DNA of 64,000 bases, taken from the NCBI GenBank assembly GCA_018335035.1, contig JAGXKT010000010.1, forward strand, positions 28 to 64,027. Reading direction: 5' to 3'. Within the stretch, counting starts at the first letter, position 1. Every line of letters begins with the position of its first letter. A model generated the notes under the pieces. It did not search any database, had not been told where the DNA came from, and worked only from the letters and a program-made list of their open reading frames with translations. The stretch comes from Phycisphaerae bacterium (lineage in GTDB: Bacteria; Planctomycetota; Phycisphaerae; SM23-33). Of this stretch, positions 7,401 through 57,062 are shown piece after piece. The position numbers and the translations under genes were made by a program.

Positions 7401-8030
7401 GATCGTCACGCGGCGGAGCATGCCGGGCCCGAACTCCGTGGACGACAGGTCGATCCCGATCGGGCCGCTGCCATCGCCCGAGCGAACGACCACATCGCCG
7501 ACGTAGCCGTAGTTGTGCGTCGTGTATTCGATGCCGACGGCGCCCGCGTTGCCCTTGCCCGTGTCCACGGTCAGATCAAGGATGTAGTTGCCGAACGCCG
7601 CGTTGGCGCGGCTATCCCGCCCGTAGTGGGCTTTCTTGTGCCCCGCCCAAAGCACCGGCTTGGACTTGCCACTGAACCGGTCGCAGTTGTCCTTGAGCTT
7701 GATGACGGTCTTGTCGGCCCCGTCGCCGACGAACCACGTCCGCCGCCCCCAGCCGATCGTGTCGCTGACCACGTACGTACCGGCCGGCACATAGATGACC
7801 ATGTACTCGAAGGGGTCCGTCTTGCGGGCCGAGAGGGCCTTGCGGAACGCCGCCGTGTCGTCCGTCACCCCGTCGCCCTTGGCGCCCTGGTTCTTGACGC
7901 TGCGCCATTCGCAGTACTTCTGGCTCTTGGGGAAATCCTCGGGGCGAACCGGCGTCGCCGCGCGGACCTGTGAACCAACCACGGCCGCCAGACACACGGC
8001 CAATCCCATCAGCTTCGTCATGCGTTGCAT
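4470..8030 (-). CDS. Multidomain secreted GH55-like hydrolase: GH55 core + PA14 + 2x chitobiase/hexosaminidase C-terminal-like (CHB_HEX_C) + CBM9-like
   Basis: Start set at ATG 8030 (MQRMTKLMGLAVCLAAVVGSQVRA), with AAAGGA 8 nt upstream; the track's 8054 is a GTG. GAKGDGVTDDTAAF and DDSAEDDTETIQAAIDSGAKTLFF motifs. PA14: GLEMASADDNFALWFEGYVEVPREGMYTFYTASDDGSVLYIGD. CHB_HEX_C-like: VRYTLDGSKPTLDSKRYTGPFTL...ARCF and IRYTLDGSAPDKDATLYTAPITV...ARCF. C-terminal CBM9-like: IDGDLDDWKGV...GYAIEFIIPARLL. Confidence 0.8.
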   Translation of the reverse strand: MQRMTKLMGLAVCLAAVVGSQVRAATPVRPEDFPKSQKYCEWRSVKNQGAKGDGVTDDTAAFRKALSARKTDPFEYMVIYVPAGTYVVSDTIGWGRRTWFVGDGADKTVIKLKDNCDRFSGKSKPVLWAGHKKAHYGRDSRANAAFGNYILDLTVDTGKGNAGAVGIEYTTHNYGYVGDVVVRSGDGSGPIGIDLSSTEFGPGMLRRVTIEGFDIGIKTTGNVSHGTLVDITLKNQNKLGILNRFPVTIHNLVSVNKVPAVRNDGGIANLAMVGAKLTGGSPDHCAIEQVKGSGLLSDVKTAGYKAALKLEGKVIDGASIDERVLGPEHSVYDGTPIRALRLAESPPPVFEEPRSQWKVVDDSAEDDTETIQAAIDSGAKTLFFIPGGDYDVTDTIRVRGKVRRLIGFGFGTTIRGPGREFVEADKPVMRFEGDGKHPISVEWINAADGAIGAEIATPRTVYFQSTRYMGYRNTPEARKIFIDEGMGHSMFVAPAKVVIRQCNMENNPFGDGKLPCTYIRNRGADVCVLGFKTEAPAVHAVTTDGGKTEVLGGFFRDHFGPTDYEWHGAPPLPGVDMSAGVPYWITKDASLTATYFQYAWAGGKARALQGIEIRGDQVEEFRVPPNNLNLGLYSAINEAATPDDRMRRRWPAVQPKGATWPHGENVTVSLELPAGVTSEDVAVRYTLDGSKPTLDSKRYTGPFTLDETTTVTARCFWGDQGGGVGRQTYRFVRPRKAAHPPATTPGVRYTYYEGGWGAVPDPDEHDPKSKGVVKNFGLEMASADDNFALWFEGYVEVPREGMYTFYTASDDGSVLYIGDELVVDNDLPHGMLTASGKINLEAGKHPIRVGFFESRGGQGLKVMWKVPGADEEPIPDSALSHGARWSVGVDSTQDAKAEDGAVNVALAVQVKGGGSKDANIRYTLDGSAPDKDATLYTAPITVKKSCKLRARCFKDGHALPGPEAVRQIFVLGEEGHPASPPVGAGAVGGAGTVDSPLELPKAPREIAIDGDLDDWKGVASLPMPFEGVQASGVRFAWSDQGLYGSALVVDDSIAGADYDLYKADCVEVFIEKDFARAEKDGKTMQLTVGPAASGKPGDAALEVWGYDRPWQNLIKAAWAKTSNGYAIEFIIPARLLRPAKMTPDTKVSFNVVIIDDGKSAAQFLSDKSKDQGFKKPVTWGAAMLTK

Positions 8031-12348: not shown

Positions 12349-14262
12349 CTACGGCGAATCCGGCGGGGCCGCGCTGTACAGCCCCATCGCACGCGTAGCC
12401 GGCTTGACGCGAAGTTGCTTCGTTTCGTCGCGGCGAATCTCGATCGCCTGAAGTGCCCGCGTCCGGTCGCCGGCGAACTGCACGTACGACGCCGTCAGCG
12501 ACGCGTCCTTCGTGATGAAGTAGGGCACTGCCTCCAGTTGCACGCCCGGCACGGGCGACTCGCCGAACCAGCGGTACTGGTCCGGGCGGAAGTGGTCGCG
12601 GAAGAACCCGCCGAGGATCTCGCTACGCCCGCCGTCCAGCGTGACGACGTGCACGGCCGGGGATTCCGTCTTCATGCTCAGCACCCACAGGTTCGCGCCG
12701 CGGTTGATCACGTAGGTGCGGGGCAGTTTGTACCGTCCGCCCTGCTCGATGCGGAACGGGTTGTTCTCGGGGTTGTACTGGCGAATCCAGACGTTCTGCC
12801 CGGGATGAAGCCGCAGGCTGGCGCCGGTCTCGTCGAGGAACAGGTCGCCCGTCGCCTCCGGCCGTGCGGTCAGCCCGTGGAACCAGCCGTACTTGATATG
12901 CACCGGGCGCGACGTGGCGATCTCGATGCGGTCGTTGTGCGTCGGCCAGGCGGAGATGCTGACCGACTCGATGGTCACCGGTCGGCCCTCGCCTGCGACG
13001 CGGAGCATGGGCTTGTCCGCGAAGTTCCCTTTCGGGTCGATGGCGCGAAGATTGCCATGGTGGTGCTTCAGCGCGAGGATGCGGCGGACCGCGCCACGGA
13101 CGACGATGGTGTCGCTGATCTTGTACTGCACGTTCGCCGGCAGAAAGACCGTCCTGGCGCCGGAGTCGATGGCGGCCTGCAAGGCCCGCGTGTCGTCCTC
13201 GCCCGAGCCGTCCGGCGTGACCCATTGGTCCACCGGCTCGACGAACGTAGCGGGCGGGTCCTTGATCTTGAGGCCGATGTGCCCCTCGGCGGCCGGGAAC
13301 ACCGCCTCGCGCCGTCCGGCGACGGCCTCGTCGATCGACGCGCCGGGCACGACGGTGCCTTCGGCCCGCAGCGCGGCCTTGTAGCCGCTCGTGCGAACGT
13401 TCCGCAGGTAGTGAGAACCATCGCTCTCGATGGCGCAGACGTCGGGTGAGCCACCGGTCAGTTTCCCGTCGATGAGTACGAACTGGGCGAGCTGGCCGCC
13501 GTTGCGCACGGCCGGGACCGCGTTGTGGCTGACCAGTCCGCGAACCGAGACGGGCAGATGATTCTCGAAGCCGACGACCTTCTGGGCTTTGAGCGTGATA
13601 TTCTCGAACGCGCAGCTCGACGGGCTGCCCGGCGTCTTGACGCCCACATCGAACCCCTCGACGGCGATGTTGCGGACCATGCCGGGCCCGAACTCCGTGT
13701 CCGACAGGTCGATACCGACGGCACCCGATCCGTCGGCGGCGCGAAGGGTCACGTCCTCGACCACGCCGTGATTGTGCGTGGTGAAACGGACGCCGACGGC
13801 GCCGGGATTCCCGCGCCCTACGTCGATCGTCATGTTGCGGACGTAATTGCTGAACGCGGCATTGCAGCGCGCATCCCGGCCGTAGAAGGGCCCCCGGGCG
13901 CCGGTGACGACAACGCCCTTCGGATCGCCGTCGTAGCCCGGGCAGTCGTCCTTGAGCTTGATGATGGTCCCGTCGCGGCTTTGGCCCTGGAGCGTGATCC
14001 AGTTGCCCCAGGCGATCCGGTCGCTGACGAGGTACGTCCCGTCCGGCACGTAGATGACCTGGAAGTGCCGCTTGACCGCCTGAATCGCCTTAACGAACGC
14101 GGCCGTGTCGTCCGTCTTGCCGTCGCCCTTGGCGCCGAAGTCGCGAACGTTGAACTGCCCGGCACCGGCGGGGTAGACGACCTCCCGGGCGCCCGCTGTC
14201 GCGGCGCAACCACACAATAGAAGCATCGCGATGACGAGGTCGGCTCGAAGTACGTCGATCAT
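12349..14262 (-). CDS. Secreted GH55-like double beta-helix hydrolase (third paralog), possible lipoprotein
   Basis: Start moved to ATG 14262 (MIDVLRADLVIAMLLLCGCAATAGA). FGAKGDGKTDDTAAFVKAI and DGSGEDDTRALQAAIDSGARTVFLP motifs. The track start 14391 has an R-rich extension. Confidence 0.8.
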   Translation of the reverse strand: MIDVLRADLVIAMLLLCGCAATAGAREVVYPAGAGQFNVRDFGAKGDGKTDDTAAFVKAIQAVKRHFQVIYVPDGTYLVSDRIAWGNWITLQGQSRDGTIIKLKDDCPGYDGDPKGVVVTGARGPFYGRDARCNAAFSNYVRNMTIDVGRGNPGAVGVRFTTHNHGVVEDVTLRAADGSGAVGIDLSDTEFGPGMVRNIAVEGFDVGVKTPGSPSSCAFENITLKAQKVVGFENHLPVSVRGLVSHNAVPAVRNGGQLAQFVLIDGKLTGGSPDVCAIESDGSHYLRNVRTSGYKAALRAEGTVVPGASIDEAVAGRREAVFPAAEGHIGLKIKDPPATFVEPVDQWVTPDGSGEDDTRALQAAIDSGARTVFLPANVQYKISDTIVVRGAVRRILALKHHHGNLRAIDPKGNFADKPMLRVAGEGRPVTIESVSISAWPTHNDRIEIATSRPVHIKYGWFHGLTARPEATGDLFLDETGASLRLHPGQNVWIRQYNPENNPFRIEQGGRYKLPRTYVINRGANLWVLSMKTESPAVHVVTLDGGRSEILGGFFRDHFRPDQYRWFGESPVPGVQLEAVPYFITKDASLTASYVQFAGDRTRALQAIEIRRDETKQLRVKPATRAMGLYSAAPPDSP

Positions 14263-26975: not shown

Positions 26976-28714
26976 GACGTGGGCCTCCTCAAAGCCCGCT
27001 GCCGCCGACGGCGCGAGCGAATCTGGCGGTTGAGCTTTCGTGCCGACCAGACCTCCAGCACGCGCCAGTAGGGTTTGAAGTTGATCCATCCGCAGCCCGG
27101 GCGGCGCAGGTAGCCCAGCAGCATCCGCAGTCGCCCGGCGTGGGTGACCACCGGGCACTTCAGCAGCGAGACGTTGAGGCGCATCAACCCCTGGAACCGC
27201 CGACGGACCGTCAACACGTGCGTCTGGCGCAGCCCGTCGAGGTCGACCAGGACGATCTGCGGCAGTTCACCCGCGCGCCAGTGAACGAGCATGTTCGGCG
27301 CCTTGAGATCGCGATGGGCGAAGCCGTGGTCGTGCAAGCCCTGCACGAGCCGCCCGAGCTGCCAGAGCACGGCCTGGGCGAGCTGGCGGCGCTGGCTGTG
27401 ATCGAGCTTGGCATCAGCCGCCCGCCCAAGATGCAACTCCAGAAAGCGGCTCAGTCGCGGCGCCTCGACGGCCTCGGTCAGGTAGATGGTATCCAGCAGG
27501 AACGGGCCCCGGCGGCGTTCCAGACCGGCCAGCGGGAAGGCCGTGGCGATGCGGCGCGTCAGCAGCATGTGCCCCAGGCGAAACGCCCGCACACCGCGTC
27601 CGCGACGGAAGCAGTCCAACAGCACCTTCCACGCCCGCTTGCGGTGCGAGCGCTTGACGTACACGTCCAGCTCACGCCCGCCGATGGTCAGCTTGCGGCG
27701 AACGACGCGGCTGGTGGCGCTATCCTTGACGACCTCGACGTCGCCGTCCATCAGCGCTTCCGGGTGCGCCAGCGCGTCGCGCCATGCATCGGGCGAAAAC
27801 TGCATATGCGCCGCGGCCGACTCGGCCGGCTTGCGCTTGGAGGCGAGCACGACGTGCCCGCGCCAGCCCCGCGGCAGCCGAACCCGCGCGAAATATCGGT
27901 TCGTCCGCGCGATCCGCCGGTCGCGGTGGGCGTACTGCCGGGCGGTGTGGCGCCGGGCGAGTTCCTCGATCAACATCTGCCAGCCACGGAGTTGGCCGGT
28001 CAGACCGGCCGCTCGCAGGTACGCGCGCAGGAAGCGCAGGCGATCGGTCCGTGTGGTGAAATCACGTCGGTCGTGGAGGAGCTGGGCGAGGTTGCTTGCC
28101 CGGGCGCGTCGGCCCCGGCTACGCCGAGTGCGGTGCAGGTCCATCACCACGAAGCTGACCTCACCGGCGTCGGATCGGCGGACCAGGAGATTGCCACAGT
28201 GCAGATCGCGATGCACAACGCCCAGGGCGTGCATGCGGGCGAGGGTCTCGGCGAGCGTGCGAATGGCCGAGCGTATCGGCCGGATGCCCGCGTCGCCCTT
28301 GGCGCGCACGCGGGCATGCCAGGCATCGGCGGGCTCGGCGTTGGTGACGGCCTCGCTGGCGACCCATTCGGTGTTGCCGGCCCGGCCGACGGCCAGAATG
28401 CGCGGCGCCGGCACGCCGCCCTGGCGCAACCGCCGCGCCAGACGCAACTCGCGCCGCGCGTCGGAAACGCCCAGACGCCGGCGCAGCCGACCCCACGCGG
28501 ACCGCGGGTGGAAGTGCTTGACGTACAGAAGCTGTCCATCGATCGCACCGCGCCACACGGTGCGCGAGGCGTTGTGCTTGACGCGCTCGAATGCGTCGTC
28601 CGGCCAGGCCAGACGCTCCACGGCACCGGCAAGTTGCCGCTCGGCGTCGGCGTCGGCGAACTCCACGCCGTCGGGCCGGCGCGGCGAGATGTCGGCGGGG
28701 TTGGTCGAGGTCAT
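26972..28714 (-). CDS. Tandem lipopolysaccharide kinase (Kdo/WaaP family) domains, 580 aa
   Basis: Two kinase cores: LLYVKHFHP...VVHRDLHCGNLLV and LDVYVKRSH...FAHRDLKAPNMLV. Confidence 0.7.
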   Translation of the reverse strand: MTSTNPADISPRRPDGVEFADADAERQLAGAVERLAWPDDAFERVKHNASRTVWRGAIDGQLLYVKHFHPRSAWGRLRRRLGVSDARRELRLARRLRQGGVPAPRILAVGRAGNTEWVASEAVTNAEPADAWHARVRAKGDAGIRPIRSAIRTLAETLARMHALGVVHRDLHCGNLLVRRSDAGEVSFVVMDLHRTRRSRGRRARASNLAQLLHDRRDFTTRTDRLRFLRAYLRAAGLTGQLRGWQMLIEELARRHTARQYAHRDRRIARTNRYFARVRLPRGWRGHVVLASKRKPAESAAAHMQFSPDAWRDALAHPEALMDGDVEVVKDSATSRVVRRKLTIGGRELDVYVKRSHRKRAWKVLLDCFRRGRGVRAFRLGHMLLTRRIATAFPLAGLERRRGPFLLDTIYLTEAVEAPRLSRFLELHLGRAADAKLDHSQRRQLAQAVLWQLGRLVQGLHDHGFAHRDLKAPNMLVHWRAGELPQIVLVDLDGLRQTHVLTVRRRFQGLMRLNVSLLKCPVVTHAGRLRMLLGYLRRPGCGWINFKPYWRVLEVWSARKLNRQIRSRRRRQRALRRPTS

Positions 28715-40889: not shown

Positions 40890-42638
40890 ATGATAGCCGT
40901 ACACGTAACGCACGAGGCCGTCGAGCAGATGGGGGGTATCGGCGCCGTGATCGCTGGGTTGGGTACGGCGCGGGCCTATGACGAGGCGATCAGCCGGACG
41001 GTGCTTCTGGGCCCGTTGATGCGAACCGACCAGCCGGTCAACCGCCGGCTCGGCGAGGGCGGCAAGCTGCTGTACAGCTCGCTGGACGCGATACACACGG
41101 CCCCCTGGAGCGACCGCTTCCGCCCCATCGAGCGGACGTACGACGTGGGGGTCACCTACGGCACGCGCCCGGTTCGCGCCGCCTGCTCGAACAAGACCGT
41201 CGAGGCCGAAGTCCTCCTGCTGGACGTGTTCCACGCCAACCGCGACCGCCTCAATCTGTTCAAGGGCGAGCTGTACCGCAAGTTCGCCGTCCCGAGTGAT
41301 CAGTTCGAGCACACCTGGGAGTACGAGCAATACGTGCGTCTGGCTGAGCCGGGCTTCGAGGCGCTCAAGGCGATCGGGTGCGACGAGAGCGACGAGCGGG
41401 TGGTGATCCTCGCCCACGAGTACATGGGCATGCCCACGGCGTTGAAGGCGGTTCTGTCCGGCGGGCCCAACACGCGGACCGTCTTCTACGCGCACGAGGT
41501 CGCCTCGGTCCGCCCCGTCGTGGAAACCGCGCCGGGGCACGATACGATGTTCTACAACGTCCTGCCGCTGGCGCGTCGTCGCGGGCAGTGGCTGGAGGAC
41601 GTCTTCGATGAGGTAGTGACGAATTTCAAGCACCCGCTGGTCAAGGCGGCGCGCTACTGCGATCACGTCTTCGCCGTCGGCGATCGCATCCGCGATGAGC
41701 TGTGTTTCGTCGATCCGCACTTCGAAACGATGGGCGTGGACCTGGTCTACAACGGCATCCCCGCCGGCCGCATCACGCGCGACCAACGCACCGACAGCCG
41801 CGAGCGCCTCGCCCGGTACGCCGAGAGACTCTTCGGCGACAGGCCGACTTGGCTGTTCAGCCACGTCTGCCGTCCGGTCGTCTCCAAGGGCATCTGGCGT
41901 GACCTGGCCGTGCTGGACACGTTGGAGTCCCTGCTCGCCCGACGCGGCGAGACGTGCGTGTACTTCATGCTGGGCACACTCGCCGGCAAGCGCCGCACCC
42001 CCGATGTCCGACAGATGGAGCGCGTGTACGGCTGGCCGGTATACCACGAGCATGGCTATCCCGACCTCTGCGGCGGCGAGGAGCAACTCGGTGAAATGTT
42101 TGACATCTTCAACCGGGACCGCGAGGCCTGCCGCGCCGTTCTGGTCAACCAATGGGGCTGGAGCCGCGACGCCTGCGGCGACCGCATGCCCGCCGAGACG
42201 ACCTTCGCTGACTTGCGGCGCGGAACGGACCTGGAGTTCGGGCTAAGCGTCTACGAGCCGTTCGGCATCAGCCAGTTCGAACCGCTGGCGTCCGGCGCCC
42301 TGTGCGCGGTATCGAACGTCTGCGGCTGCATGGGTCTGGCCCGACGGGAGGCCGGCGCGGACGGCTTCGACGACAACATCATCGTCGGCGACTTCCTGCA
42401 CGCCCCGGAGGGACTGAGCATCGAGCAGTTGGTCTCCATGCCCGTCGACCAGCGCGACGCCATCGAGGCCGACGAAGCCGCCCGCCTGGCGGAGATCATC
42501 GACGCCAAGCTCCCCCGCGATGAGGACACGATCCACAGCAGGATGGCGCAAGGACAAGCCCTTGCCGAACGGATGAGCTGGGAACACGTGGTGTCCGACT
42601 ACATCCTGCCGTCACTCCAGCGGGCGTCCGAGACGTAG
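40890..42638 (+). CDS. Glycosyltransferase, putatively GT3 glycogen(starch)-synthase-like
   Basis: N-terminus MIAVHVTHEAVEQMGGIGAVIAGL resembles the GT3 'EVAWEVANKVGGIYTVI' start. Start set at the ATG inside the longer track ORF (40134); the upstream part of that ORF is antisense to larA. Family call is tentative. Confidence 0.5.
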   Translation: MIAVHVTHEAVEQMGGIGAVIAGLGTARAYDEAISRTVLLGPLMRTDQPVNRRLGEGGKLLYSSLDAIHTAPWSDRFRPIERTYDVGVTYGTRPVRAACSNKTVEAEVLLLDVFHANRDRLNLFKGELYRKFAVPSDQFEHTWEYEQYVRLAEPGFEALKAIGCDESDERVVILAHEYMGMPTALKAVLSGGPNTRTVFYAHEVASVRPVVETAPGHDTMFYNVLPLARRRGQWLEDVFDEVVTNFKHPLVKAARYCDHVFAVGDRIRDELCFVDPHFETMGVDLVYNGIPAGRITRDQRTDSRERLARYAERLFGDRPTWLFSHVCRPVVSKGIWRDLAVLDTLESLLARRGETCVYFMLGTLAGKRRTPDVRQMERVYGWPVYHEHGYPDLCGGEEQLGEMFDIFNRDREACRAVLVNQWGWSRDACGDRMPAETTFADLRRGTDLEFGLSVYEPFGISQFEPLASGALCAVSNVCGCMGLARREAGADGFDDNIIVGDFLHAPEGLSIEQLVSMPVDQRDAIEADEAARLAEIIDAKLPRDEDTIHSRMAQGQALAERMSWEHVVSDYILPSLQRASET

Positions 42639-42786
42639 CTACGCTGCCGGCCAGGGCCCCGCAGGGGATACACAGGGATGATTTGAGGGATGGGCCGCGT
42701 CACTCGGAACGCGCGCAATGGGCCGCCGCACAAGCCCGGTGCTTCTTCAACGGGTCAACGAATTAACGAATCCACGAGCCAACGGC

Positions 42787-45528
42787 CTACTTCACTTCCG
42801 TCATCAACAGCACGGCCGGGCGGTCGTCGGCGCCGTAGCAGTTTCCGCGGTCGATAACGGCCAGGTAGTGCCACGTGCCCTGTTCATCATCATCGGCGTC
42901 GCGCAGTTCAACGCGGATCGTAGCGGCGTACGTATCGCTCTGCGTGGTGATGACGTTCGCCACGGACGTGTACAGCAGATTGACGGCGACGGCGTAATTG
43001 GCGGTGCCTTCATTGGCCAGGCCGGCAAAATGGTCGACGACGTAGTCACCCAATGGCACGGCCAGTTCGCCGGGCGTCATATATCCGGGGTGGTTGCTGC
43101 TGCCGCGCAGGCCGGCAATGCCGGTCGCCCCCGCCCGCGACATGTAGTCGCGACTGCCGCCGATATGCGCCGCGTAGCGGTACGCCAGGATGTAGTCGCA
43201 CAGCGTGTTGCGTCGCGCCGTGGTGATATTCGGCTCGCTCGACCCGTCGTCCACGCCGTTGCCGTTGAGGTCGAAGTACGTCGGAAACGGCAAGCGAAAC
43301 AGTACCTCGCGAGGGGCGGTGTTGATGTTCACGCGCCCGTAGACGCGTGTGTGCGTATTGGCCGGTGCCGGTCCAGGCGCCTCGCGGGTGTCGTCGCCGG
43401 GAATCTGCTCGAGCAGTTCGCCCACCACCGTCGACCAGGGCACGTCGGCGTAATCGCCGCCGCCCAGATCGGGGCTCCGCCAATTCAGCTTGCCGCGCGA
43501 TGCACTGGTGGCGTACGAACTTTCGAGTTGGTGGGGCAGGTCGTTGCCATCGTCGTCCGGGCCGGTCACGAAGATGTCCGTCAACTGCCCCAGACTGTAC
43601 GGATCGCCGTGGAGCACGTCGACATCGAATCCTTCGTAGCAGGTGTCGCGCTCCATGTCGCTCGTGTCAACGTTGTTGGCCACGCCCAGGCGATGGGACC
43701 CATCCTCGTAGCGATCGTAGACGGCGACGGCGCAGCGCTGCCGCGACGCGCCGTCGTCACGACGTGCGTCCTTCGTTTCCGCTTCATCGTTTGCAACGTT
43801 CGTCGCCTCGTACTCAAGTTCATCCGCCGAGACGCTGTCGACGCGAACCTGCACGCTCGTCGCATTGCGGACGAGGCGCTTGGTGGACTCCGTGAAATCC
43901 GTGATCCAGTTGCATTGCACCCAGTTGCTCCCCGGCGGCGGATCGAATACGTCCGCCACGGTCGCAGGGGTGCTCGTTTCCTTGTCCCAGTTGTACAGCA
44001 CGCAGCGCGCGCCGGGCGCAAGTGTGATGTTCAAGGGCCCCAGCGATCCACCCTCGAACAGGTAATTGTTCAAGCTGATTTGGCGGGACGTGGGGTTGAA
44101 GATTTCCACGGCCGCCCCCCAGACCCAGTCGCCCGGCACCGTGTCACCGTTGTAATCGGGGTTGTGCATGGCGAAGGCCTCGGAGATGACCGGCCCGTCG
44201 ATGACACCGTAGACGACCTTCTCGAGCGTGGCCGGATTCCCGTCGTGGTCGTAGCTGTAATCGAAGGCCTCCGAGGTGTCGTAATCGCTCAGGTACGCCC
44301 ACAGATTGGCCACAAAATGCGCCGCGTCCGTGCGTGGGGCGCCGGCGGCGACCAGTTCACCGAACAGGGCGTCGCGGGCGCTGGCGCTGCCGCGGATGTC
44401 GGACAAGGTCAACCGGCGCAGGAAGGGCTGCCCGCCGATCGTTCCCGGCCGGCGAACCACAACCCGCGAGGCGTTGTAGGTGGTCATCAGCGCGCGATCG
44501 GCGGCGGATGTCAGCTCCGCGCCGTTGTGGGTCAAGCCCTGGTACAGGCGGCTCGTGTCGACCACGGCCGACGAGGACAACCAGCGCAGAAGCACCTCGT
44601 CGCCGACGGAGAACGGGCGGGCGCCGCCCGTCGGGCTCAGCGGGTGCAGTGCGATCTGCTCGTGAATGCCCAGCGGCTCTTCACTGCCCGCCGCGGTGCC
44701 CTGCCGCTGCGCGTTGATGCCCAAAATGCGCTCGCCGATCAAATTCTGAAGATCAATGTACACCGGTGCCAGGTAGTCCGGGTAGTCCCACGTATCGACC
44801 TGGTCGTCGTCAAAGCAGATGCTGACGTTAAGCATGCCCGACAGATCGACCACGTTGACGGCCACGTGATACGTCCGTCCGTTGACGTCGGATATGCCCG
44901 TGTCGATCAGATACGCGTCCTCGGCGTTGTCATCATCGGTATCGACGAAGGTCGTGGACGTCCCGAACACGTCGCTGAGGCGCCGACCGGGCGGCGAGTC
45001 GACCGCATTGGCCTGAGACGACAGATGGGCGTCGATGTCGTCGGACGGACAATCGATGAAACGCCGCCATCGCTCGGCGGGTCCCGCGCCGCCGGCGCCG
45101 ACGTTCACGTACGGCCAATTGCCGCCGCCGATGTGCAGGTCGTCTTTGAGCAAGTCGCAGACGCGTTCCAAGGCCCCGCGCGCCACCGGTTCGGCGCGGT
45201 GCTTGACCGTCAGCGACGCGGTGCTCCGCGCATGCGAGTGCGAGATGATCAGAAACGTCCCGCCCAGCATGGCGAGGATCGTCAAGAGCCCGACGACCAG
45301 CAACAACGCCGAGCCGCGGCGTGCGCGTCCGTATGGACTGCGCCGTGTGCGGCCGTACGGGACAGCGTGATTGGCGTGCCTGCCTGACGCCCCCCCCGCC
45401 AAACCACGACGCCCGCCGCGCGTGTCGTGGGTGCCATGGTTTGCCCTCGCGCCGTCCGCGAGGGCAACCATGCCGAATGCTGCGTGCAGGCCCGCGGCCG
45501 CTCGGATTCTTCTTTTTGATCTCGTCAT
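42787..45528 (-). CDS. gspK: Giant GspK-like minor pseudopilin (T2SS protein K family), ~910 aa
   Basis: N-terminal TM RRGSALLLVVGLLTILAMLGGTFLII. VNINTAPREVLFRLP is a GspK-type helix-hairpin-helix. Start uncertain: ATG 45528 (MTRSKRRIRAAAG, GGAG ~15 nt upstream) or ATG 45471, which lies inside a hairpin repeat. The track start 45729 is unlikely. Confidence 0.55.
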   Translation of the reverse strand: MTRSKRRIRAAAGLHAAFGMVALADGARANHGTHDTRGGRRGLAGGASGRHANHAVPYGRTRRSPYGRARRGSALLLVVGLLTILAMLGGTFLIISHSHARSTASLTVKHRAEPVARGALERVCDLLKDDLHIGGGNWPYVNVGAGGAGPAERWRRFIDCPSDDIDAHLSSQANAVDSPPGRRLSDVFGTSTTFVDTDDDNAEDAYLIDTGISDVNGRTYHVAVNVVDLSGMLNVSICFDDDQVDTWDYPDYLAPVYIDLQNLIGERILGINAQRQGTAAGSEEPLGIHEQIALHPLSPTGGARPFSVGDEVLLRWLSSSAVVDTSRLYQGLTHNGAELTSAADRALMTTYNASRVVVRRPGTIGGQPFLRRLTLSDIRGSASARDALFGELVAAGAPRTDAAHFVANLWAYLSDYDTSEAFDYSYDHDGNPATLEKVVYGVIDGPVISEAFAMHNPDYNGDTVPGDWVWGAAVEIFNPTSRQISLNNYLFEGGSLGPLNITLAPGARCVLYNWDKETSTPATVADVFDPPPGSNWVQCNWITDFTESTKRLVRNATSVQVRVDSVSADELEYEATNVANDEAETKDARRDDGASRQRCAVAVYDRYEDGSHRLGVANNVDTSDMERDTCYEGFDVDVLHGDPYSLGQLTDIFVTGPDDDGNDLPHQLESSYATSASRGKLNWRSPDLGGGDYADVPWSTVVGELLEQIPGDDTREAPGPAPANTHTRVYGRVNINTAPREVLFRLPFPTYFDLNGNGVDDGSSEPNITTARRNTLCDYILAYRYAAHIGGSRDYMSRAGATGIAGLRGSSNHPGYMTPGELAVPLGDYVVDHFAGLANEGTANYAVAVNLLYTSVANVITTQSDTYAATIRVELRDADDDEQGTWHYLAVIDRGNCYGADDRPAVLLMTEVK

Positions 45529-45712
45529 GGTTACTGCTCGCTTCTCCCCCCGCGGACCCGACAGGCGGGACGCTCGTCCACAACAACGGCCTACGGCGGC
45601 TGCCCCGGCTTGCCCGTGCGTTGTCGGCACGGGCAACCATGCCGGATGCCAAGCATCGCGTGGTTGGTTCGCCTGCCTGACGGCAGGCGCGCCAAGCCAC
45701 GGCATCCCGCCT
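45375..45712. repeat. Patch of dispersed short direct repeats and hairpins (REP-like) in the gspJ/gspK junction and gspK 5' region
   Basis: Hairpin 1: catggtttgccctcgcg-ccgtc-cgcgagggcaaccatg (45435-45472). Hairpin 2: ttgcccgtgc-gttgtcg-gcacgggcaa (45610-45636). Both are followed by GGGCAACCATGCCG[A/G]ATGC. GCCTGCCTGACG occurs at 45378 and 45671, the second copy in the hairpin gcctgcc-tgac-ggcaggc. CGCCAA[A/G]CCACG[A/G]C..CCCGCC occurs at 45397 and 45689. Confidence 0.5.
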
Positions 45713-45733
45713 GTAGTACAGCAAAGCACGGCA

Positions 45734-46579
45734 TTACCGCCCGACGGGGCAGATCACCTCGTAGCGATACTCGTCTTCGCCGGCGCCGCGCATCTCTTCC
45801 GGAAGCGTGGGATCGACCAGGCGAAAGCGAAAGCGAATCGCCATGGGCCAGTCGTTTTGGTCGTGATGCGTCCAGAGTTCCGACGTCGTCTGCCATTGCA
45901 GCGCGGTACCGACCACACTTCCGTCGGTCCATGCGATCTCCAGCTCCGTGCACCAGGCCGAGAGAACCTGCCACACCTCGCCGAGTTGGCTCAGGTTGGT
46001 CGGCGGCACGGTCAGTTGGTCGTTGTAGCTCCCGCTGCACAGCGACGTGCACCACGCCTGCATCTGCGGCCTGGCGGCGGCCTGAATGTCGCCCTGCGTG
46101 ACGTTGTTTCCGCCGAGGCGGAAGATGTCCGGGTCATCTCCCGACGGCGAGAGGACGTATCCGGCCCGCCACAAAATGAACTCCTCGTCGGCGGCATCCG
46201 CCTTCGGCCGGGCGCCGAGGCATACCACGGCGCCGTTTCCGCGGACCGGTCCGGTCACGCTGGGCGTCGGTCCGGCGGCGGTTATGATGAGCCTGGGCCG
46301 GCCGTCGTCGTCGTAACCCAGGTACAGGAAGCCCTGCTGGCTGGCGCGTTTGATGTCGCGGCGGAGCACGCTGGTGATCGCCGCGGCCTTGGCGTTGGCG
46401 CGCATCGCGCTCTGAGCGGTACTGACCACCCGGTGGCTCTGGGAGAACACGACACTGAAGCCCAGCAGCAGGATGGCCAGCACCGCCACGGCGACGATCA
46501 ACTCCATCAGGGTCATGCCGCTCCGCCACCGGGGCGCCGCCAAGCGGCGATAAGCGTTTTGTTTGCGAATCCGGTTCAT
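45734..46579 (-). CDS. Pseudopilin with prepilin-type N-terminus (GspJ-like by position)
   Basis: Start set at MNRIRKQNAYRRLAAPRWRSGMTLMELIVAVAVLAILLLGFS. The track start 46795 is R-rich. Confidence 0.6.
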   Translation of the reverse strand: MNRIRKQNAYRRLAAPRWRSGMTLMELIVAVAVLAILLLGFSVVFSQSHRVVSTAQSAMRANAKAAAITSVLRRDIKRASQQGFLYLGYDDDGRPRLIITAAGPTPSVTGPVRGNGAVVCLGARPKADAADEEFILWRAGYVLSPSGDDPDIFRLGGNNVTQGDIQAAARPQMQAWCTSLCSGSYNDQLTVPPTNLSQLGEVWQVLSAWCTELEIAWTDGSVVGTALQWQTTSELWTHHDQNDWPMAIRFRFRLVDPTLPEEMRGAGEDEYRYEVICPVGR

Positions 46580-51499: not shown

Positions 51500-53257
51500 C
51501 TACGCCTCCACGTCCTCGTAGATCGTCTGGGAGACGACCTCTTCGATCGTGGTCTGCCCGTCATAGATCATCAGCAGTCCGCTCTCGCGCAGGGTGCGCA
51601 TGCCGCGCCGCCGAGCGGCCTCGCGAAGCACGTTCGTGCTCCGCCGCTCCATAATCAAGCTTCGCAGTTCGTCGTCCAGCACCATCATCTCGAACATCGC
51701 CGTCCGCCCGCTGTAGCCCGTCCCACGGCAGAAGTCGCAGCCCCCGCCGCGGTAGAAAGTCCGCCCTTGTACGTCCTGCGGCGTCAACCCCAGCTCCATA
51801 AGCATCTCTTCGGTGGGGGTATAGGCCTCCTTGCATCGCGGGCAGATCACCCGCACCAGACGCTGGGCCACGATGCCCTCCAGGGTGGCGGTAATCAGGT
51901 ACGGCGGCAGGCCCAGGTCCAGAATCCGCGCGATCGACGACGGCGCGTCGTTGGTGTGCAGCGTGGTGAACACCAGGTGTCCGGTCAACGACGCCTGCAC
52001 GGCGATCTGCGCCGTCTCCAGATCGCGAACCTCGCCGACAAGCACGATGTCCGGGTCCTGCCGAAGGAAAGACCGCAAGCAGCGGGCGAACGTCAGCCCG
52101 ATCTCGTCGTTGATCTGTGTCTGAACCAACCCGTCGATGTCGTACTCGACGGGGTTCTCGGCCGTGAGGACCTTCGTTTCGATGTCGTTCAACTCACGCA
52201 GGGCGGAGTATAGGGTGGTGGTCTTGCCGCTTCCGGTCGGCCCCGTGACAATCACAATGCCGTTGGGCCTCTCGATCAGACGCCGGAAGACGCGCATGTC
52301 ATCTTCGCGCATGCCGAGCTTTTCGATGTCGAGCGATACCTGGGAGCGGTCCAGAACGCGCATCACGACGCTCTCGCCGAACATGGTCGGCAACACGCTG
52401 ACGCGCAGGTCCACCGGCGAGCCGTTGACGACCAGTTCGATGCGTCCGTCCTGCGGCACGCGGCGCTCGGCGATGTCCAGCCCGCTCATTACCTTGATTC
52501 GCGAGGCGACCGCCACCGCGATCGAGGCCGGCGGCGGAAGCATCTCGTACAGGAGCCCGTCGATGCGATACCGCATCTTGAACTCGTCCTCGAACGGCTC
52601 GAAATGGATGTCCGAGGCCCGGTTGCGGATGGCCTCCAGCAGGACCATGTTCACCAGCCGCTTGACCGGGTTTGCGTCGGCCATCTCCTTGATCGTGTCC
52701 AGATCGATGCTCTCGCCGCGATCCTCCAGCATGGCGAGGTGCTCGTTGCCCGCAATCTCGTTGATCAGCTCCCCGATCGACTCCGGCTCGACGTCGTAGT
52801 ACTTCATCAACGCCGTCTCGATCTGCTTCTCGTCGGTGATCTTGGCGGTCACCTCGTAGCCCATCAGCGTTCGCAGATCGTCGGTCGCCTGGAAGTTATC
52901 CGCCGAGCCCAGCGCCACGACAAGGTGATGCGTCGCTTCGTCGTACTCCAGCGGGATGATGCCGTACGACTTGGCCATCTGCGAGGGCACCTGGCGGATG
53001 ACGTCGTCGGGCACGTCGTATGAGTCCAGGTCGACGTACTCCATCCCGGCCTGGTAGGCCAACGCCAGCGACAGCGTCCTGGCGTCAATATGCCCCAAAT
53101 CCACCAAGATCTGCCCCAACGGCCCGCCGCGGTCCTTCTGGACCTCCTGGGCCTCACGCACCTGCTCGCGGGTCACCTTGCCCATCTTGACCAGCACCCG
53201 CCCGATGTGCCGCCCGCGATACTGATGGATCCTCTGTTGTTCGCCCGCCTTATCCAT
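51500..53257 (-). CDS. gspE: T2SS/T4P assembly ATPase (GspE/PilB family) with N-terminal GspII domain
   Basis: IVTGPTGSGKTTTLYSAL (Walker A), LVGEVRD, C-terminal CPRC...CDFC zinc motif. Confidence 0.85.
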   Translation of the reverse strand: MDKAGEQQRIHQYRGRHIGRVLVKMGKVTREQVREAQEVQKDRGGPLGQILVDLGHIDARTLSLALAYQAGMEYVDLDSYDVPDDVIRQVPSQMAKSYGIIPLEYDEATHHLVVALGSADNFQATDDLRTLMGYEVTAKITDEKQIETALMKYYDVEPESIGELINEIAGNEHLAMLEDRGESIDLDTIKEMADANPVKRLVNMVLLEAIRNRASDIHFEPFEDEFKMRYRIDGLLYEMLPPPASIAVAVASRIKVMSGLDIAERRVPQDGRIELVVNGSPVDLRVSVLPTMFGESVVMRVLDRSQVSLDIEKLGMREDDMRVFRRLIERPNGIVIVTGPTGSGKTTTLYSALRELNDIETKVLTAENPVEYDIDGLVQTQINDEIGLTFARCLRSFLRQDPDIVLVGEVRDLETAQIAVQASLTGHLVFTTLHTNDAPSSIARILDLGLPPYLITATLEGIVAQRLVRVICPRCKEAYTPTEEMLMELGLTPQDVQGRTFYRGGGCDFCRGTGYSGRTAMFEMMVLDDELRSLIMERRSTNVLREAARRRGMRTLRESGLLMIYDGQTTIEEVVSQTIYEDVEA

Positions 53258-53263
53258 GGCTCG

Positions 53264-54436
53264 TCAGGTCCTCTGTTCCCCCTGGTCGGGTACGCCGCCC
53301 GCGATCGCGCGGACGCCGCCGGCGGCCTGGGCCGCCTCCTCGCTCAACCCGCTGCCGCTGGCCTCAATGCGGTCGTGCATCTCGGCCGCGTTATGCGATC
53401 GGTCGATCGCATCGATGTCGCTGATCTTGCCCTCCCGGTACAACTGCAGCAGGTGATCGTCCATCAACTGCATGCCCAGCTTCTTGCCCGTCTGGATTGA
53501 CGAGGGAATGCGGAAGGTCTTGTTCTCCCGGACCAGGTTGCTGATCGCATTGGTCACGTAGAGAAACTCGAACGCCGCCACCATCCCCCGCACGTCCTTT
53601 CGCGGAAGCAGCACCTGCGACAGCACCGAGATCAACGATTCCGACAGCATCACCCGGATCCGCTCCTGTTCGGCCGTCGGGAACATGTCCACGATGCGCG
53701 TGACCGTGCGGTGCGCGCTGGTCGTGTGCAGCGTGCCGAAGACCAGGTGCCCCGTTTCCGCCGCCTGAAGCGCCGCTTCCACCGTCTCCAGGTCACGCAA
53801 CTCCCCGACGAGAATCACGTCCGGGTCCTGCCGCAACACGCGACGCAACGCCTCGGCGAAGCTCGGCACGTCCACCCCCACCTCCCGCTGACTGATCAGC
53901 GACTTCTTGTGCGGGTGGTAGAACTCGATCGGGTCCTCGATCGTGATGATGTGCTTGTCGAATTCCCGGTTGATGTAGTCGATCAACGTCGCCAGCGTCG
54001 TCGTCTTACCCGAGCCGGTCGGACCGGTCACCAGGAACATCCCACGCGGACGACGACACAAGCTCTTGGTGACCTCCGGAAGCCCGATCTCCTCGAAGCT
54101 GAACAGCTTGGCCGGAATCAGCCGCAACGTCAGCGACAGGTTTCCCCGCTGCTGAAACACCGCCGTGCGAAAACGCCCCACCTCCCGGAACTCGAAGCCG
54201 AAGTCCGTCCCCCCCTGCTCCTGGAGCTCCTGCTGCGCCCGCTCAGGCGTGATCGCCTTCATCATCGCCTCGGTGTCGGCCGGCTCAAGGACTTTCGTCT
54301 CCAAGGAACGAAGTCGTCCGTGCAGTCGGAGCGTCGGCTGACGCCCCACGTGCAGGTGCAAGTCACTGGCCCCCCGCTTGATGCACGTCTCCAGCAGTCT
54401 GTCAATGTGCGGCGTGCTGGGCTGCGATTTCGCCAT
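53264..54436 (-). CDS. pilT: Type IV pilus retraction ATPase PilT
   Basis: ASDLHLHVGRQPTLRLHG, LVTGPTGSGKTTTLATLIDYIN, ILVGELRDLETV, GHLVFGTLHT. Start set at MAKSQ (GGAAG 7 nt upstream). 408 aa as the track has it. Confidence 0.85.
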   Translation of the reverse strand: MAKSQPSTPHIDRLLETCIKRGASDLHLHVGRQPTLRLHGRLRSLETKVLEPADTEAMMKAITPERAQQELQEQGGTDFGFEFREVGRFRTAVFQQRGNLSLTLRLIPAKLFSFEEIGLPEVTKSLCRRPRGMFLVTGPTGSGKTTTLATLIDYINREFDKHIITIEDPIEFYHPHKKSLISQREVGVDVPSFAEALRRVLRQDPDVILVGELRDLETVEAALQAAETGHLVFGTLHTTSAHRTVTRIVDMFPTAEQERIRVMLSESLISVLSQVLLPRKDVRGMVAAFEFLYVTNAISNLVRENKTFRIPSSIQTGKKLGMQLMDDHLLQLYREGKISDIDAIDRSHNAAEMHDRIEASGSGLSEEAAQAAGGVRAIAGGVPDQGEQRT

Positions 54437-54569
54437 CGGCATGCTTCCTTCTGCTAGCGCATTATTCGGGTTCCAGCCACCGCCGACCACGGCCCGCGGG
54501 CCGGGGCGCGCTGGTCAATAGCACTAACCTTTTGAAATACAATACTTTACCTTCCTCCACCGTCGAGGG

Positions 54570-56273
54570 CTACTCCGTGAGCAACTCCGTCGTCTGCGTG
54601 ATGCGCCCCAGTTCTTCAGGCGTCGTGACGCCGTTGAGAATCTTGCGACGACCGTCCTCCAACAGCATCCGCATGCCCGACGACCGCGCCGCTTCACGAA
54701 TCTCGCTCAGCGGGGCTTGGTTGAATGCCAACTCCCGAAGCGTGTTGTTCATCTCCATCAATTCGAAAATCCCCTGCCGCCCTCGGTATCCCAACCCGTG
54801 GCATGCGTTGCAACCCCTTCCACGATAAAAGGTTCGCCCCTTTATCTCCTCTTCGGTAAACCCCAGCAGCCGCAACGTGCGCTCGTCCGGGCTGGGGTCT
54901 TCCTCCCGGCATTCCGGACAGATCACGCGTACCAGCCGCTGCGCCATTACGGCCTGCACGCTACTGGCCACAAGGAAGGGCTTGACCCCCATGTCGATCA
55001 AGCGGGCAATCGCCGACGGCGCGTCGTTCGTGTGAAGTGTACTGAAAACCAGGTGTCCTGTCAGAGAGGCCTGAATAGCGACCTCGGCCACCTCAATATC
55101 GCGAATCTCGCCAACAAGAATGATATTTGGGGCTTGGCGCAGCATGGACCGCAGGATCGCCGCGAAGCTCAGGCCGATCTGGTCGTTGACCTGCACCTGA
55201 TTGATGCCGGTGAAGTTGTACTCCACCGGGTCCTCGGCCGTGATGATTTTGCGATCCGGGCGATTCAGTTCATTGATGGCCGCGTAAAGCGTCGTCGTCT
55301 TGCCCGATCCGGTCGGGCCGGTTACGAGGAACACGCCGTTGGGACGCTTGATGATGTTCAGGAAACGCTGGTAGTCTTCCTGGTCGAATCCCAGCGCCGG
55401 GATGCCCATCTTGGCGCTCTCCGGCCGCAGAATCCGCAAGACGATGCTTTCGCCGTGATACGCCGGAAGGGCCGAGACGCGGAAGTCCACCTGGGACCCG
55501 CCTACGGTCATCTTGATCCGCCCGTCCTGCGGGAGGCGGCGTTCGGCCAGGTCAAGGCCCGCCATGATCTTGAAGCGGTTGACCACGGAGCCCTGCATCC
55601 GCTTGGGAATGTTGTCGCGCTCCATACAAACGCCGTCGACGCGATACCGCACGCGCACGCGGTCCGCCATCGGCTCGATGTGAATGTCGCTGGCGCGCAT
55701 ATTGACCGCTTCGGTGATGATCATCGTCACCAAGCGGATAATGGGCGCATCTTCTCCGTCGCCTTCGTCTTCGCCGACCCGGGCGGCGACTTCTTCCTCA
55801 GGAGAGCGCATCTCGCTGACGGCCTCGTCGACGCTGACGTCACCGCGGACATATTGCTCCACGAAGCCGCGCAGCTTGGACTTGGACGCCAGGGCCGGTA
55901 CGATCTCCTTGCCCAGGCGAAAGCGAAGCATATCCAGCGTTTCGAGGTCCAGCGGGTCGGTGATAATCACCTTGACACGATCGTCCTCGGCGCCGAGAGG
56001 AAGCACCAGGTGGCGCCGAATGATCTCCTGCGGGATCAGATCGGTGTCGCTCGGCGCTACGACGTTGCGCTCGAGGTCGATGTACTCCATGTCGTACTGA
56101 CTGGCCAGTGCCTTGGTGACGTCCTCCTCGTCGGCGACGCCCAATGCCACCATCGCCTCGCCGATGCGCATCCCCTCGGCCTGGGCGTGCTGCAACGCTT
56201 CCTCCACGCCGCTTGGGGTGACGACCCCCCAATCCACGAGAATCTCGCCCAGTCGTCGTCGTTTCCGTGCCAT
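54570..56273 (-). CDS. Second T2SS/T4P assembly ATPase (GspE/PilB family)
   Basis: Start set at MARKRRRLGEILVDWGVV (GAAGG 8 nt upstream). LVTGPTGSGKTTTLYAAINEL, LVGEIRD, CPEC...CNAC. Paralog of 51500..53257. Confidence 0.85.
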   Translation of the reverse strand: MARKRRRLGEILVDWGVVTPSGVEEALQHAQAEGMRIGEAMVALGVADEEDVTKALASQYDMEYIDLERNVVAPSDTDLIPQEIIRRHLVLPLGAEDDRVKVIITDPLDLETLDMLRFRLGKEIVPALASKSKLRGFVEQYVRGDVSVDEAVSEMRSPEEEVAARVGEDEGDGEDAPIIRLVTMIITEAVNMRASDIHIEPMADRVRVRYRVDGVCMERDNIPKRMQGSVVNRFKIMAGLDLAERRLPQDGRIKMTVGGSQVDFRVSALPAYHGESIVLRILRPESAKMGIPALGFDQEDYQRFLNIIKRPNGVFLVTGPTGSGKTTTLYAAINELNRPDRKIITAEDPVEYNFTGINQVQVNDQIGLSFAAILRSMLRQAPNIILVGEIRDIEVAEVAIQASLTGHLVFSTLHTNDAPSAIARLIDMGVKPFLVASSVQAVMAQRLVRVICPECREEDPSPDERTLRLLGFTEEEIKGRTFYRGRGCNACHGLGYRGRQGIFELMEMNNTLRELAFNQAPLSEIREAARSSGMRMLLEDGRRKILNGVTTPEELGRITQTTELLTE

Positions 56274-56603
56274 GTTGCTACCTTCGCGACTGCAGAGCCC
56301 GCAGCGGCCCACTAGCGGAGCGATGCCGCCCTGCCGTGCTGCGCAGCGAATCGTTTGCCGCATCCACGGTGCTGTCGGGCGCTGCCGGAGAGGAAGGAGT
56401 TACAGATGAGGGCGGGACCGCCCGGACGCCCCACAGGACGCCCTTGAAAACTCCGACCGTGCCCGGAAAAACGATGAGATCCGGAATGCACATGGATTTT
56501 ACCACCCTGATGCGCTAAGGGTCAAGCTCCCGATGCCGCCAGGGCGCCGGCTCACGCGAGTGGCCGGCCGGGCGACGGGCACGATGGCCCGCCGCACGAG
56601 AGA

Positions 56604-57062
56604 TCAGCTGCTCGTACCCCCCCCGTCGATCACCGCGTAGACCCGCTCGAATCCCATCGCAGCCATGCGATTGCCAAGACGGAGAGCCCGCTCGCCGGTA
56701 CGACAGTACACCAGGTACGCTGTGTCACGGTCGAACGCGTCGAGCCGACTCGTCAGCATCCGCTCACCGGCGTGAACGTCAACGTGCACGGCCCCGGCGA
56801 GATGGCCCCGCTCGTACGCGCTGCCCGAGCGACAGTCCAGCACGGTCAACGACTCCCCGCCGGCAAGCATGCCGGCCGCCTGCTCCGGAACGATCAGCCA
56901 TGCGACCGCGGGGCGAGCCGAGCGGCCGCAAGTTGTACAGCCGCGCGGGCCGTCTATGCCGCCGCACGAGGTAACGCCAAGGGTGACCAGCGCGACGCTC
57001 CACCACGCCGCCCGGTTCAGTCGGGCGCGCGGGGCGCGTTCGGGGTGAATCGATCGATGCAC
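56604..57062 (-). CDS. Rhodanese-domain lipoprotein (single-domain sulfurtransferase)
   Basis: LTVLDCRSGSAYERGHLAGAVHV...YLVYCRTGERA is the rhodanese fold with an active-site Cys. Start re-set to GTG 57062 with a perfect GAGGAG 7 nt upstream. Leader ...AAWWSVALVTLGVTSC has a V-T-S-C lipobox. Confidence 0.6.
   Translation of the reverse strand: MHRSIHPERAPRARLNRAAWWSVALVTLGVTSCGGIDGPRGCTTCGRSARPAVAWLIVPEQAAGMLAGGESLTVLDCRSGSAYERGHLAGAVHVDVHAGERMLTSRLDAFDRDTAYLVYCRTGERALRLGNRMAAMGFERVYAVIDGGGTSS

Follow-up and report, generated by a model that had tools for sequence, protein, structure and literature searches.

We analysed a 64,000-nt stretch of contig JAGXKT010000010.1 from assembly GCA_018335035.1 (Phycisphaerae bacterium), hereafter the window, to which coordinates refer unless another contig is named, and in it a patch of palindromic repeats at the junction of two pseudopilin-like genes. 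The window (G+C content 67%) comes from an uncultured member of the Phycisphaerae and carries a type II secretion/type IV pilus-like operon, which runs on the minus strand from 56363 to 45734 and comprises, according to Pfam, genes for three T2SSE ATPases and one T2SSF protein together with six that have a prepilin N-methylation motif. All the genes relevant to the patch lie on this strand, in the order N_methyl genes, patch, and a large gene ending at 42787. The other junctions within the operon measure −41 to 79 nt in the window, whereas the spacer at the patch is 205 nt long and is the sole long non-coding gap. The two flanking genes are the following.

45734..46579, minus strand: GspJ-like pseudopilin gene (Pfam N_methyl and TIGR02532 matches, weak gspJ match; stop codon TAA at 45734-45736)
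42787..45528, minus strand: large pseudopilin-like gene at the GspK position (proposed start 45528; NCBI start TTG 45306; Logan gene call ATG 45471)

The GspJ-like protein has the leader MNRIRK...RSG/MTLMELIV (the slash marks the leader end), and its orthologue (P0012) bears the NCBI name PulJ/GspJ family. The label GspK is positional only: the large gene comes last, after the GspJ-like gene and four more N_methyl genes, and its product is large and has a prepilin-like hydrophobic N-terminus, without Glu5. No match to GspK was obtained for this protein in Pfam, in NCBIfam or in a PDB sequence search, even with a 10-sequence profile, and a structure model of low confidence (pLDDT 51) gave weak matches to lamin-tail Ig domains only and none to GspK. 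MBS3734408.1 (KGY99_05720), encoded in a metagenome-assembled genome (MAG) of a Phycisphaerae bacterium, has the same protein sequence (100% identity). Since an independent Logan assembly (L069) is 100% identical to the window across 42246-45975, the patch is not an assembly artefact.

The patch consists of four copies of one palindromic unit of about 50 nt in two orientations, D1 being the D2 unit inverted. On the messenger RNA (mRNA) the layout is D2b (forward), D1b (inverted), a Shine-Dalgarno (SD)-like tract with the ATG at 45528, D1a (inverted) and D2a (forward). We scored the units with two covariance models, R1 built from the D1 copies (15 pairs) and R2 from the D2 copies (12 pairs); L062 below is a contig of the closest relative.

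45653..45706, minus strand: unit D2b, forward type (R2, 71 bits; repeat D2 plus inverted repeat I2; orthologous to L062 2910-2963)
45589..45657, minus strand: unit D1b with its flanks, inverted, in the spacer (R1, 86.7 bits; core hairpin 45610-45636, hairpin 2)
45420..45488, minus strand: unit D1a with its flanks, in the reading frame (R1, 87.6 bits; core hairpin 45435-45472, hairpin 1)
45360..45413, minus strand: unit D2a, in the reading frame (R2, 72.4 bits; orthologous to L062 3154-3207)

Hairpin 1, at 45435-45472, has 16 bp with one bulged T, a 5-nt loop and a perfect 11-bp core (45441-45467), and hairpin 2, at 45610-45636, has 10 bp and a 7-nt loop. D2b forms an imperfect hairpin of about 19 bp, with the inner stem GCGCCTGCC/GGCAGGCG and the loop GUCA; it lies in the intercistronic spacer, its stem starting 32 nt past the stop of the GspJ-like gene. 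In D2a the inner stem is degenerate, and this unit holds an in-frame TTG (45402) and a run of eight G (G8, 45390-45397). Over all copies the units measure 45-54 nt, with stems of 15-16 bp in D1 and 11-19 bp in D2; D2b and D1b are 8 nt apart, D1a and D2a about 20 nt. A repeat search returned the D1 pair as 52-nt direct repeats (45429-45480 and 45598-45649, 77% identical) and the D2 pair as repeats of 44 nt (45365-45408 and 45658-45701, 77% identical, 293 bp apart), which include the motifs GCCTGCCTGACG and CGCCAARCCACG. In the window there are exactly two occurrences of the 19-nt tail GGGCAACCATGCCG[A/G]ATGC, at 45462 and 45631. Its 14-mer GGGCAACCATGCCG is exact at these two sites alone; with up to two mismatches it has 5 matches, compared with 1.07 expected, and none of 100 shuffles reached 5. 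Both hairpins, the shared tail and the second motif pair are thus present as a preliminary description of this DNA had reported them. The ends of D1 and D2 are common to both (GGTGCCRTGGYTTGSC ... GSCAACCAYG) and the inner stems differ: reverse-complemented D1 has two end sequences in common with D2, GGTGCC(A/G)TGG(T/C)TTG and, opposite to it, CAACCA(T/C)G. On the opposite strand, moreover, D1a is hit by the D2 model with 25.4 bits and D2b by the D1 model with 23.1 bits. Because each model finds the other type on the opposite strand and the ends are shared, D1 and D2 form one unit family in two orientations.

The RNA fold of 45340-45740 is more stable than that of shuffled sequences (z = −4.1 for the sense strand, −3.85 for the antisense strand), and the sense strand has three G-U pairs versus one on the antisense strand. 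A perfect stem of 10-11 bp is by itself not beyond chance, since Markov shuffles of the window give 9-12 bp; the signal is the shared sequence together with compensatory stems and with conservation in another genome. Between D1a and D1b there are two double substitutions in the stem, both compensatory, and in the D1 helix 97.8% of cells are paired, with 2 compensatory pairs (D1a relative to D1b and L062). The outer stems of D2 are invariant while its inner stems vary between copies, and D2 shows no covariation. Rfam 15 gave no match at gathering score in the window, and within 45200-45900 its matches were at chance level (E = 0.2-2). As for transcription signals, no T-run follows any unit on either strand, the single consensus match to an intrinsic terminator being a 5-bp stem at the stop of the GspJ-like gene, and a promoter scan found no sigma-70-like promoter. 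Readings of the units as attC-like or operator-like were dropped by eye, as the core motifs do not fit. Homopolymer runs of at least 8 nt are two in the window, 45390-45397, in the putative leader stretch described below, and 56617-56624 (C8, plus strand), about 250 nt upstream of the first operon ATPase gene. A homopolymer switch at the G8 run was rejected: with 2 runs against about 3 expected, G8 is not rarer than expected, and its length is the same in the independent assembly.

The two flanking proteins have few homologues. Closest among the relatives is a Planctomycetota MAG whose contig L062 spans the same junction, with 62% identity in the GspJ-like protein and 56% in the large protein, and whose gap is of about the same length and can be aligned with that of the window. 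It holds, in order, a D2 unit, a D1 unit, a purine-rich SD tract with an ATG, a duplicated half-unit of D2, a complete D2 unit (the orthologue of D2a), a 24-nt tandem repeat and the codons for RRGSALLL. D1b and L062 2966-3035 are identical at 29 of 31 stem positions, D2a and its counterpart at 22 of 23 positions of the outer stem, and D1a has no counterpart in the L062 alignment. Taken together, the three orthologous unit pairs are identical at 71 of 77 stem positions (92%), compared with 58% at four-fold sites of the flanking genes (P = 3e-11); their loops and inner parts are 65-75% identical. The stem bases have thus been kept, whether by selection or through homogenisation inside a repeat family. 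Furthermore, the D2 units occupy different reading frames, so that their conservation is at the level of the nucleotides and not of the peptide. The L062 leader region itself contains a 34-nt, twofold duplication of the 5′ half of D2 (3119-3187) and a 24-nt tandem repeat in 2.8 copies (3266-3331); a sibling contig (L003) and a Logan contig (L004) begin exactly past these repeats, which suggests that repeat or strain variation breaks the assembly at that point.

In the next lineage out (L001 and L064, 49-52% identity), the same junction holds an unrelated spacer of 218-228 bp. This spacer (L001 5783-6000, L064 4255-4482) is 93.6% conserved between the two and has its own inverted repeat of about 20 nt around a stretch of about 130 nt; covariance models found no relationship between it and the units, and its own fold is not significant (z = −1.3). 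Among orthologues at 30-38% identity the junctions measure 20-26 bp (26 in L005, 21 in L067, 20 in L068). This comparison supports the view that the patch is a structured, repeat-built, lineage-specific expansion of an otherwise tight junction.

The start of the large gene lies within the patch. In-frame ATGs are found at 45705, 45528 and 45471, and in-frame TTGs at 45636, 45402 and 45306. The preliminary description, which had listed ATGs at 45729, 45528 and 45471, was right about the last two; 45729 is a GTG, and the ATG is at 45705 instead. It had also placed the ATG 45471 in the CCATGG of hairpin 1 and proposed this codon as the candidate gspK start. However, the ATG of that CCATGG (45434-45439) is out of frame and 45471 lies in GGCATGG, one arm of hairpin 1, where it is fully paired, whereas an accessible SD tract and ATG at 45528 are conserved as far as orthologues of 33% identity. 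The features of this start are as follows.

45541..45551, minus strand: SD-like purine tract GGGGGGAGAAG (sense), 13-23 nt upstream of ATG 45528 (mean P(unpaired) 0.58)
45526..45528, minus strand: probable native start ATG, aligned with the L062 ATG 3077 (context ACCATGAC shared with L067; most accessible in-frame candidate)
45313..45528, minus strand: putative 72-codon leader, Met1 to the conserved Gly72 before Ser-Ala-Leu-Leu-Leu, open and in frame (orthologue alignment)

GGAGAAG or GGAAG ahead of the start is conserved in L062, L001, L064, L005 and L067, the full context GGAGAAG..ACCATGAC recurs in L067 (33% identity), and GGAAGGAAG precedes the start in L001, L064 and L005. ATC CGA stands seven codons after both ATG 45528 and the L062 ATG 3077; as an in-frame stop lies just ahead of the latter, a start farther upstream is ruled out in L062. 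A partition-function fold gave P(unpaired) of 0.55-0.62 for the initiation region at 45528 versus 0.01 at 45471, with the same result in L062. On the other side of the leader, Gly-Ser followed by a hydrophobic helix is invariant in 7 orthologues, and all 7 have RRGS. The annotated TTG 45306 is too short a start, because the RRGS codons lie upstream of it and it would begin within the hydrophobic helix. The in-frame starts upstream of RRGS near the helix are TTG 45402 (in D2a), ATG 45471 (in the stem of hairpin 1) and ATG 45528, so that part of the unit cluster would be translated whichever of the three is used. The conservation of the GGAGAAG..ACCATGAC context, like the alignment of GspK orthologues that had been proposed for placing the native N-terminus, points to ATG 45528 as the probable native start, rather than ATG 45471 or TTG 45306. 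The public model of the GspJ-like protein, KGY99_05725 (260 aa), begins at 46516, at the Met of MTLMELIV and without the leader; the ATG at 46579 gives a 21-aa leader ending in Gly. KGY99_05720 and KGY99_05725 both look 5′-truncated.

With initiation at ATG 45528, two units lie in the spacer and two would lie in frame inside a putative 72-aa leader, of which the Gly-Ser would be the prepilin-type cut site. Class III (prepilin) signal peptides have a hydrophilic leader that is 6-26 aa long, ends in Gly and precedes about 21 hydrophobic residues (PMC4471445), and 72 aa is far outside this range. The leader before the conserved Gly measures 72 codons in the window and 85 in L062, compared with 9-16 aa outside this pair. 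Its G+C content at codon positions 1/2/3 is 0.69/0.72/0.70, versus 0.64/0.48/0.84 in neighbouring genes. Because this codon-position periodicity is missing, as inserted palindromes would lead one to expect, and the D2 units sit in different frames, the leader appears to be palindromic DNA that happens to be read and is not shaped by coding selection. A stretch of this kind has a chance of 0.54 of being stop-free; the frame is open and in register in both the window and L062 despite their differing length, a joint outcome with a probability of about 0.02 for an ATG that had no relation to the gene.

How such a patch might have arisen and what it might do can be read in several ways. Repetitive extragenic palindromes (REPs), their mosaic clusters, the bacterial interspersed mosaic elements (BIMEs), and their inverted doublets (REPINs) are well described, and the literature records both arrays of REPs in alternating orientation and REPs within genes (PMC3333891, PMC3116915, PMC3733652); the Rickettsia palindromic elements (RPEs) provide cases of in-frame palindromic insertion (PMC10969869). 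We tentatively put forward, at somewhat less than even confidence, that the patch is a BIME-like cluster of REP/RPE-like units at a permissive site, acting as mRNA hairpins. Since an intercistronic spacer and a leader that is removed from the mature protein are both permissive, the palindromic units would have expanded at the one tolerant place of the operon. They would be co-transcribed with it, without U-tracts, and fold into stable mRNA hairpins flanking an exposed ribosome-binding site; these may put an end to translational coupling with the pseudopilin genes upstream and determine how stable the mRNA segment is and how much the last, low-abundance cistron yields, as REPs and other intercistronic hairpins are described as doing (PMC3733652, PMC5927463). 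The in-frame pair would be read as part of the 72-aa leader and be cut off before the mature protein at the conserved Gly-Ser.

Several points weigh against this reading. The preliminary description had expected a REP family to recur many times in the genome, and this expectation failed in everything we searched: neither full covariance-model scans nor blastn-short found a further copy in the other 63.6 kb of the window, nor did the covariance models in about 64 kb of related loci. The best non-member match of the D1 model, at 28258-28334 (21.7 bits), is a hairpin in a coding region that we judged unrelated; this perfect 10-bp hairpin, ATGCCCGCGT...ACGCGGGCAT, lies at 28285-28316, inside apparent coding sequence. 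Among 185,579 species genomes, the pattern TTGCCCN{12,24}GGGCAACCATGCCG gave 31 single matches in unrelated phyla and without hairpins; in JGI metagenome contigs the pattern GGGCAACCATGCCGNATGC gave 24 chance matches, and an exact-pattern scan of viral contigs gave 0. The genome and metagenome scans are weak negatives, as they did not recover the source locus and the D1 unit of L062 is one base off the genome pattern; copy searches effectively covered 64 kb of the source genome, and a low-copy dispersed family (fewer than about one copy per 50-100 kb) could have escaped them. Six-frame peptides of all units matched nothing at E <= 10 among 5.8 billion proteins. A Pfam scan of 15 gene-length open reading frames (ORFs; the operon and its immediate neighbours) and two sub-fragments of one of them showed no Y1 transposase, although no search aimed at REP-associated tyrosine transposases (RAYTs) was made. 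In REPs, one end of the palindrome bears a conserved tetranucleotide tag, GTAG or CGTC (PMC3733652), and in our alignments neither is conserved at any unit end: D2 ends are TGCC/GGCC/CGTC-GTGG and D1 ends CGGC/CGAC-ATGG, CGTC abuts the stem in D2a only, and GTAG occurs in L062 loops only. The units are also longer than the usual 20-40 bp of REPs. Initiation at ATG 45528, cleavage at Gly72 and the mRNA effect are all putative, and conservation at a single orthologous locus fits a locus-specific function equally well. The units may be no more than a tolerated REP-like insertion that also misled gene annotation. No template/variable repeat of the diversity-generating retroelement type and no long repeat was tied to the patch; the long repeats of the window are paralogous genes.

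A locus-specific function is the substance of the nearest alternative, which we rank below the REP-like reading and regard as doubtful: a dedicated cis-regulatory element, in which selected RNA structures control synthesis of the terminal pseudopilin, either as sites for an RNA-binding protein or RNase or by switching between local hairpins and long-range D1b/D1a or D2b/D2a pairing around the ribosome-binding site. The units occur at this locus alone in all the sequence that could be searched, their order and orientation are conserved in L062, and their stems are 92% identical against 58% at silent sites, the sequence itself being kept, which suggests a sequence-specific partner. The compensatory pairs in D1, the excess of G-U pairs (three sense versus one antisense) and the slightly more stable fold on the sense strand, and a ribosome-binding site in an open loop between two pairs of hairpins, speak for it as well. 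Yet one unit in both orientations would be unusual for an RNA element, and the architecture varies, L062 lacking D1a and having the 34-nt half-unit duplication and the 24-nt tandem repeats. The degenerate inner stem of D2a, the unrelated spacer of L001 and L064, the missing spacer in more distant relatives and the lack of an Rfam match also count against it, and the covariation is thin, coming from two genomes and being nil in D2. In its broadest form, which we think unlikely, the units would not be selfish repeats but a selected, locus-specific regulatory module of Phycisphaerae secretion-pilus operons, whose sequence-specific hairpins, placed to either side of the start and partly within a putative cleavable leader of 72-85 aa, set the amount of the tip pseudopilin; the G8 run could add an on/off frameshift switch, likened here to that of Neisseria pilC. 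Of the RNA structure first proposed as a regulator of translation, what has held is that hairpins are conserved in a relative with compensatory changes, which makes an RNA-level effect plausible; a start at the ATG inside hairpin 1 is not supported. Uniqueness to this locus and orthologues without conserved structure had been named in advance as grounds against the earlier proposal, and the units are unique so far in the sequence searched while the closest orthologue, L062, keeps the structure.

The remaining explanations carry little weight. The invariance, rather than covariation, of the outer arms of D2, the apparent irrelevance of unit orientation and the spacer's being the only long non-coding gap of the operon would suit an array of double-stranded DNA binding sites, with widely spaced inverted half-sites TGCCRTGGTTTG / CAAACCAYGGCA, for a regulator or nucleoid protein at an internal promoter; we deem this improbable, because D1 and D2 differ by mirrored arm changes (G:C to A:T; GCG:CGC to CCC:GGG) that point to base pairing, a distance of 20-25 bp separates the half-sites, the scan gave no sigma-70-like promoter and two units lie inside a reading frame. 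Gating of initiation by sequestration of ATG 45471 is very improbable: that codon is in frame, was chosen by one gene caller (P0016) and, with P(unpaired) of 0.01, is as fully paired as a gated start should be, but D1a and hence this ATG have no counterpart in L062, no SD-like tract precedes it, and the conserved SD and ATG stand 57 nt upstream in the same frame. [quoted passage not shown] A 14-nt inverted repeat (45371-45384 and 45682-45695, 93%) and a junction much longer than in distant orthologues might be taken for its traces, yet its centre holds the native SD, ATG and first codons shared with orthologues, its flanks (GGACAGC and GCATCCC) show no target-site duplication, its terminal repeats are two copies of the self-complementary D2 unit that are also direct repeats, and no sequence searched contained a second copy. 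Finally, perfect 10-11 bp stems do arise in Markov shuffles and open frames are common in a genome of 67% G+C, but shuffles do not attain the 14-mer pair or the repeats of 52 and 44 nt, the fold has a z of about −4 and the conservation in L062 a P of 3e-11, so that ordinary coding and spacer sequence with hairpins and repeats by chance is the least credible reading of all. The gated start, the single MITE and chance are thus all at odds with a conserved start that sits mid-patch and with the conservation statistics.

The practical outcome is a corrected gene model: the TTG 45306 of KGY99_05720 cuts off a motif that every orthologue conserves, and another gene caller chose an ATG buried in a hairpin, where the conserved ribosome-binding site favours ATG 45528. 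If true, the leader would be several times longer than any described, and the patch would be a case, from an organism other than Rickettsia, of palindromic repeat DNA that a gene carries in frame, at the one segment of a prepilin-type protein that is discarded on processing, which would explain its tolerance. Units that proved to be locus-specific and selected would constitute a new cis-regulatory element for pseudopilin stoichiometry in Planctomycetota; dispersed ones would make up a new REP-like family, without tags, in Phycisphaerae. In both cases the result would interest specialists only.

Elsewhere in the window, the three T2SSE-family ATPases are encoded at 51500-56363 on the minus strand; two have an MshEN domain (597 and 585 aa) and are about 70% identical across a 300-nt stretch, and the third (408 aa) is PilT-like. 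This set would resemble a type IV pilus machine capable of retraction more closely than it does a classical type II secretion system. The N-terminus of the GspJ-like protein gave a weak match to TIGR02599 (Verru_Chthon cassette protein C), which hints that the pseudopilin set is possibly related to the four-gene cassette of the PVC superphylum. Three paralogous segments of about 1.8 kb (2534-4292, 6108-7887 and 12400-14137; 60-82% identical) point to a small gene family in a tandem-like layout.

Compared with known systems, the element would work like REP/BIME or RPE palindromes yet does not, or not clearly, show their defining traits. Unlike REPs, which measure 20-40 nt, its units measure 45-54 nt and have no conserved GTAG/CGTC tag at an end; no other copy is known from the 64 kb or the scanned public collections, no associated RAYT is known, and two units lie in a reading frame. 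Like REPs and BIMEs, however, they are G+C-rich imperfect palindromes that form stem-loops with a conserved base and a variable tip, they cluster with short linkers and alternate in orientation, in an intercistronic spacer that is presumably co-transcribed, their arrangement differs between relatives, and REPs too are occasionally found inside genes. RPEs are palindromic repeats in frame within protein-coding genes (PMC10969869) and are CGTC-tagged (PMC3733652). They measure about 100-150 bp and are dispersed in dozens of genes, whereas the units here are shorter and known from one gene, and the peptide that they would add, its translation being inferred, falls in a putative cut-off leader and not in the mature fold; the likeness is that of a palindrome in an ORF, in register and stop-free (in the window from ATG 45528 to the transmembrane helix via D1a and D2a, in L062 via D2 units), providing an extra peptide segment at a position that the protein tolerates. 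REP hairpins at malE-malF bring about differential mRNA decay within the operon. A genome-wide survey has described intercistronic stem-loops in differential mRNA decay (PMC5927463). Unlike such decay hairpins, half of those predicted here come after the next start codon; they resemble them in being stable, without a U-tract, and placed directly between the end of one cistron and another, presumably less abundant one, and as they have no U-tract they would act as barriers or processing sites and not as terminators. Finally, the enterobacterial repetitive intergenic consensus (ERIC) and Correia elements are co-transcribed MITEs (PMC10969869), whose defined terminal inverted repeats, target-site duplications and many copies were not found here; what the patch has in common with them is short inverted-repeat DNA that, here by prediction, is transcribed with its neighbours and folds in the mRNA.

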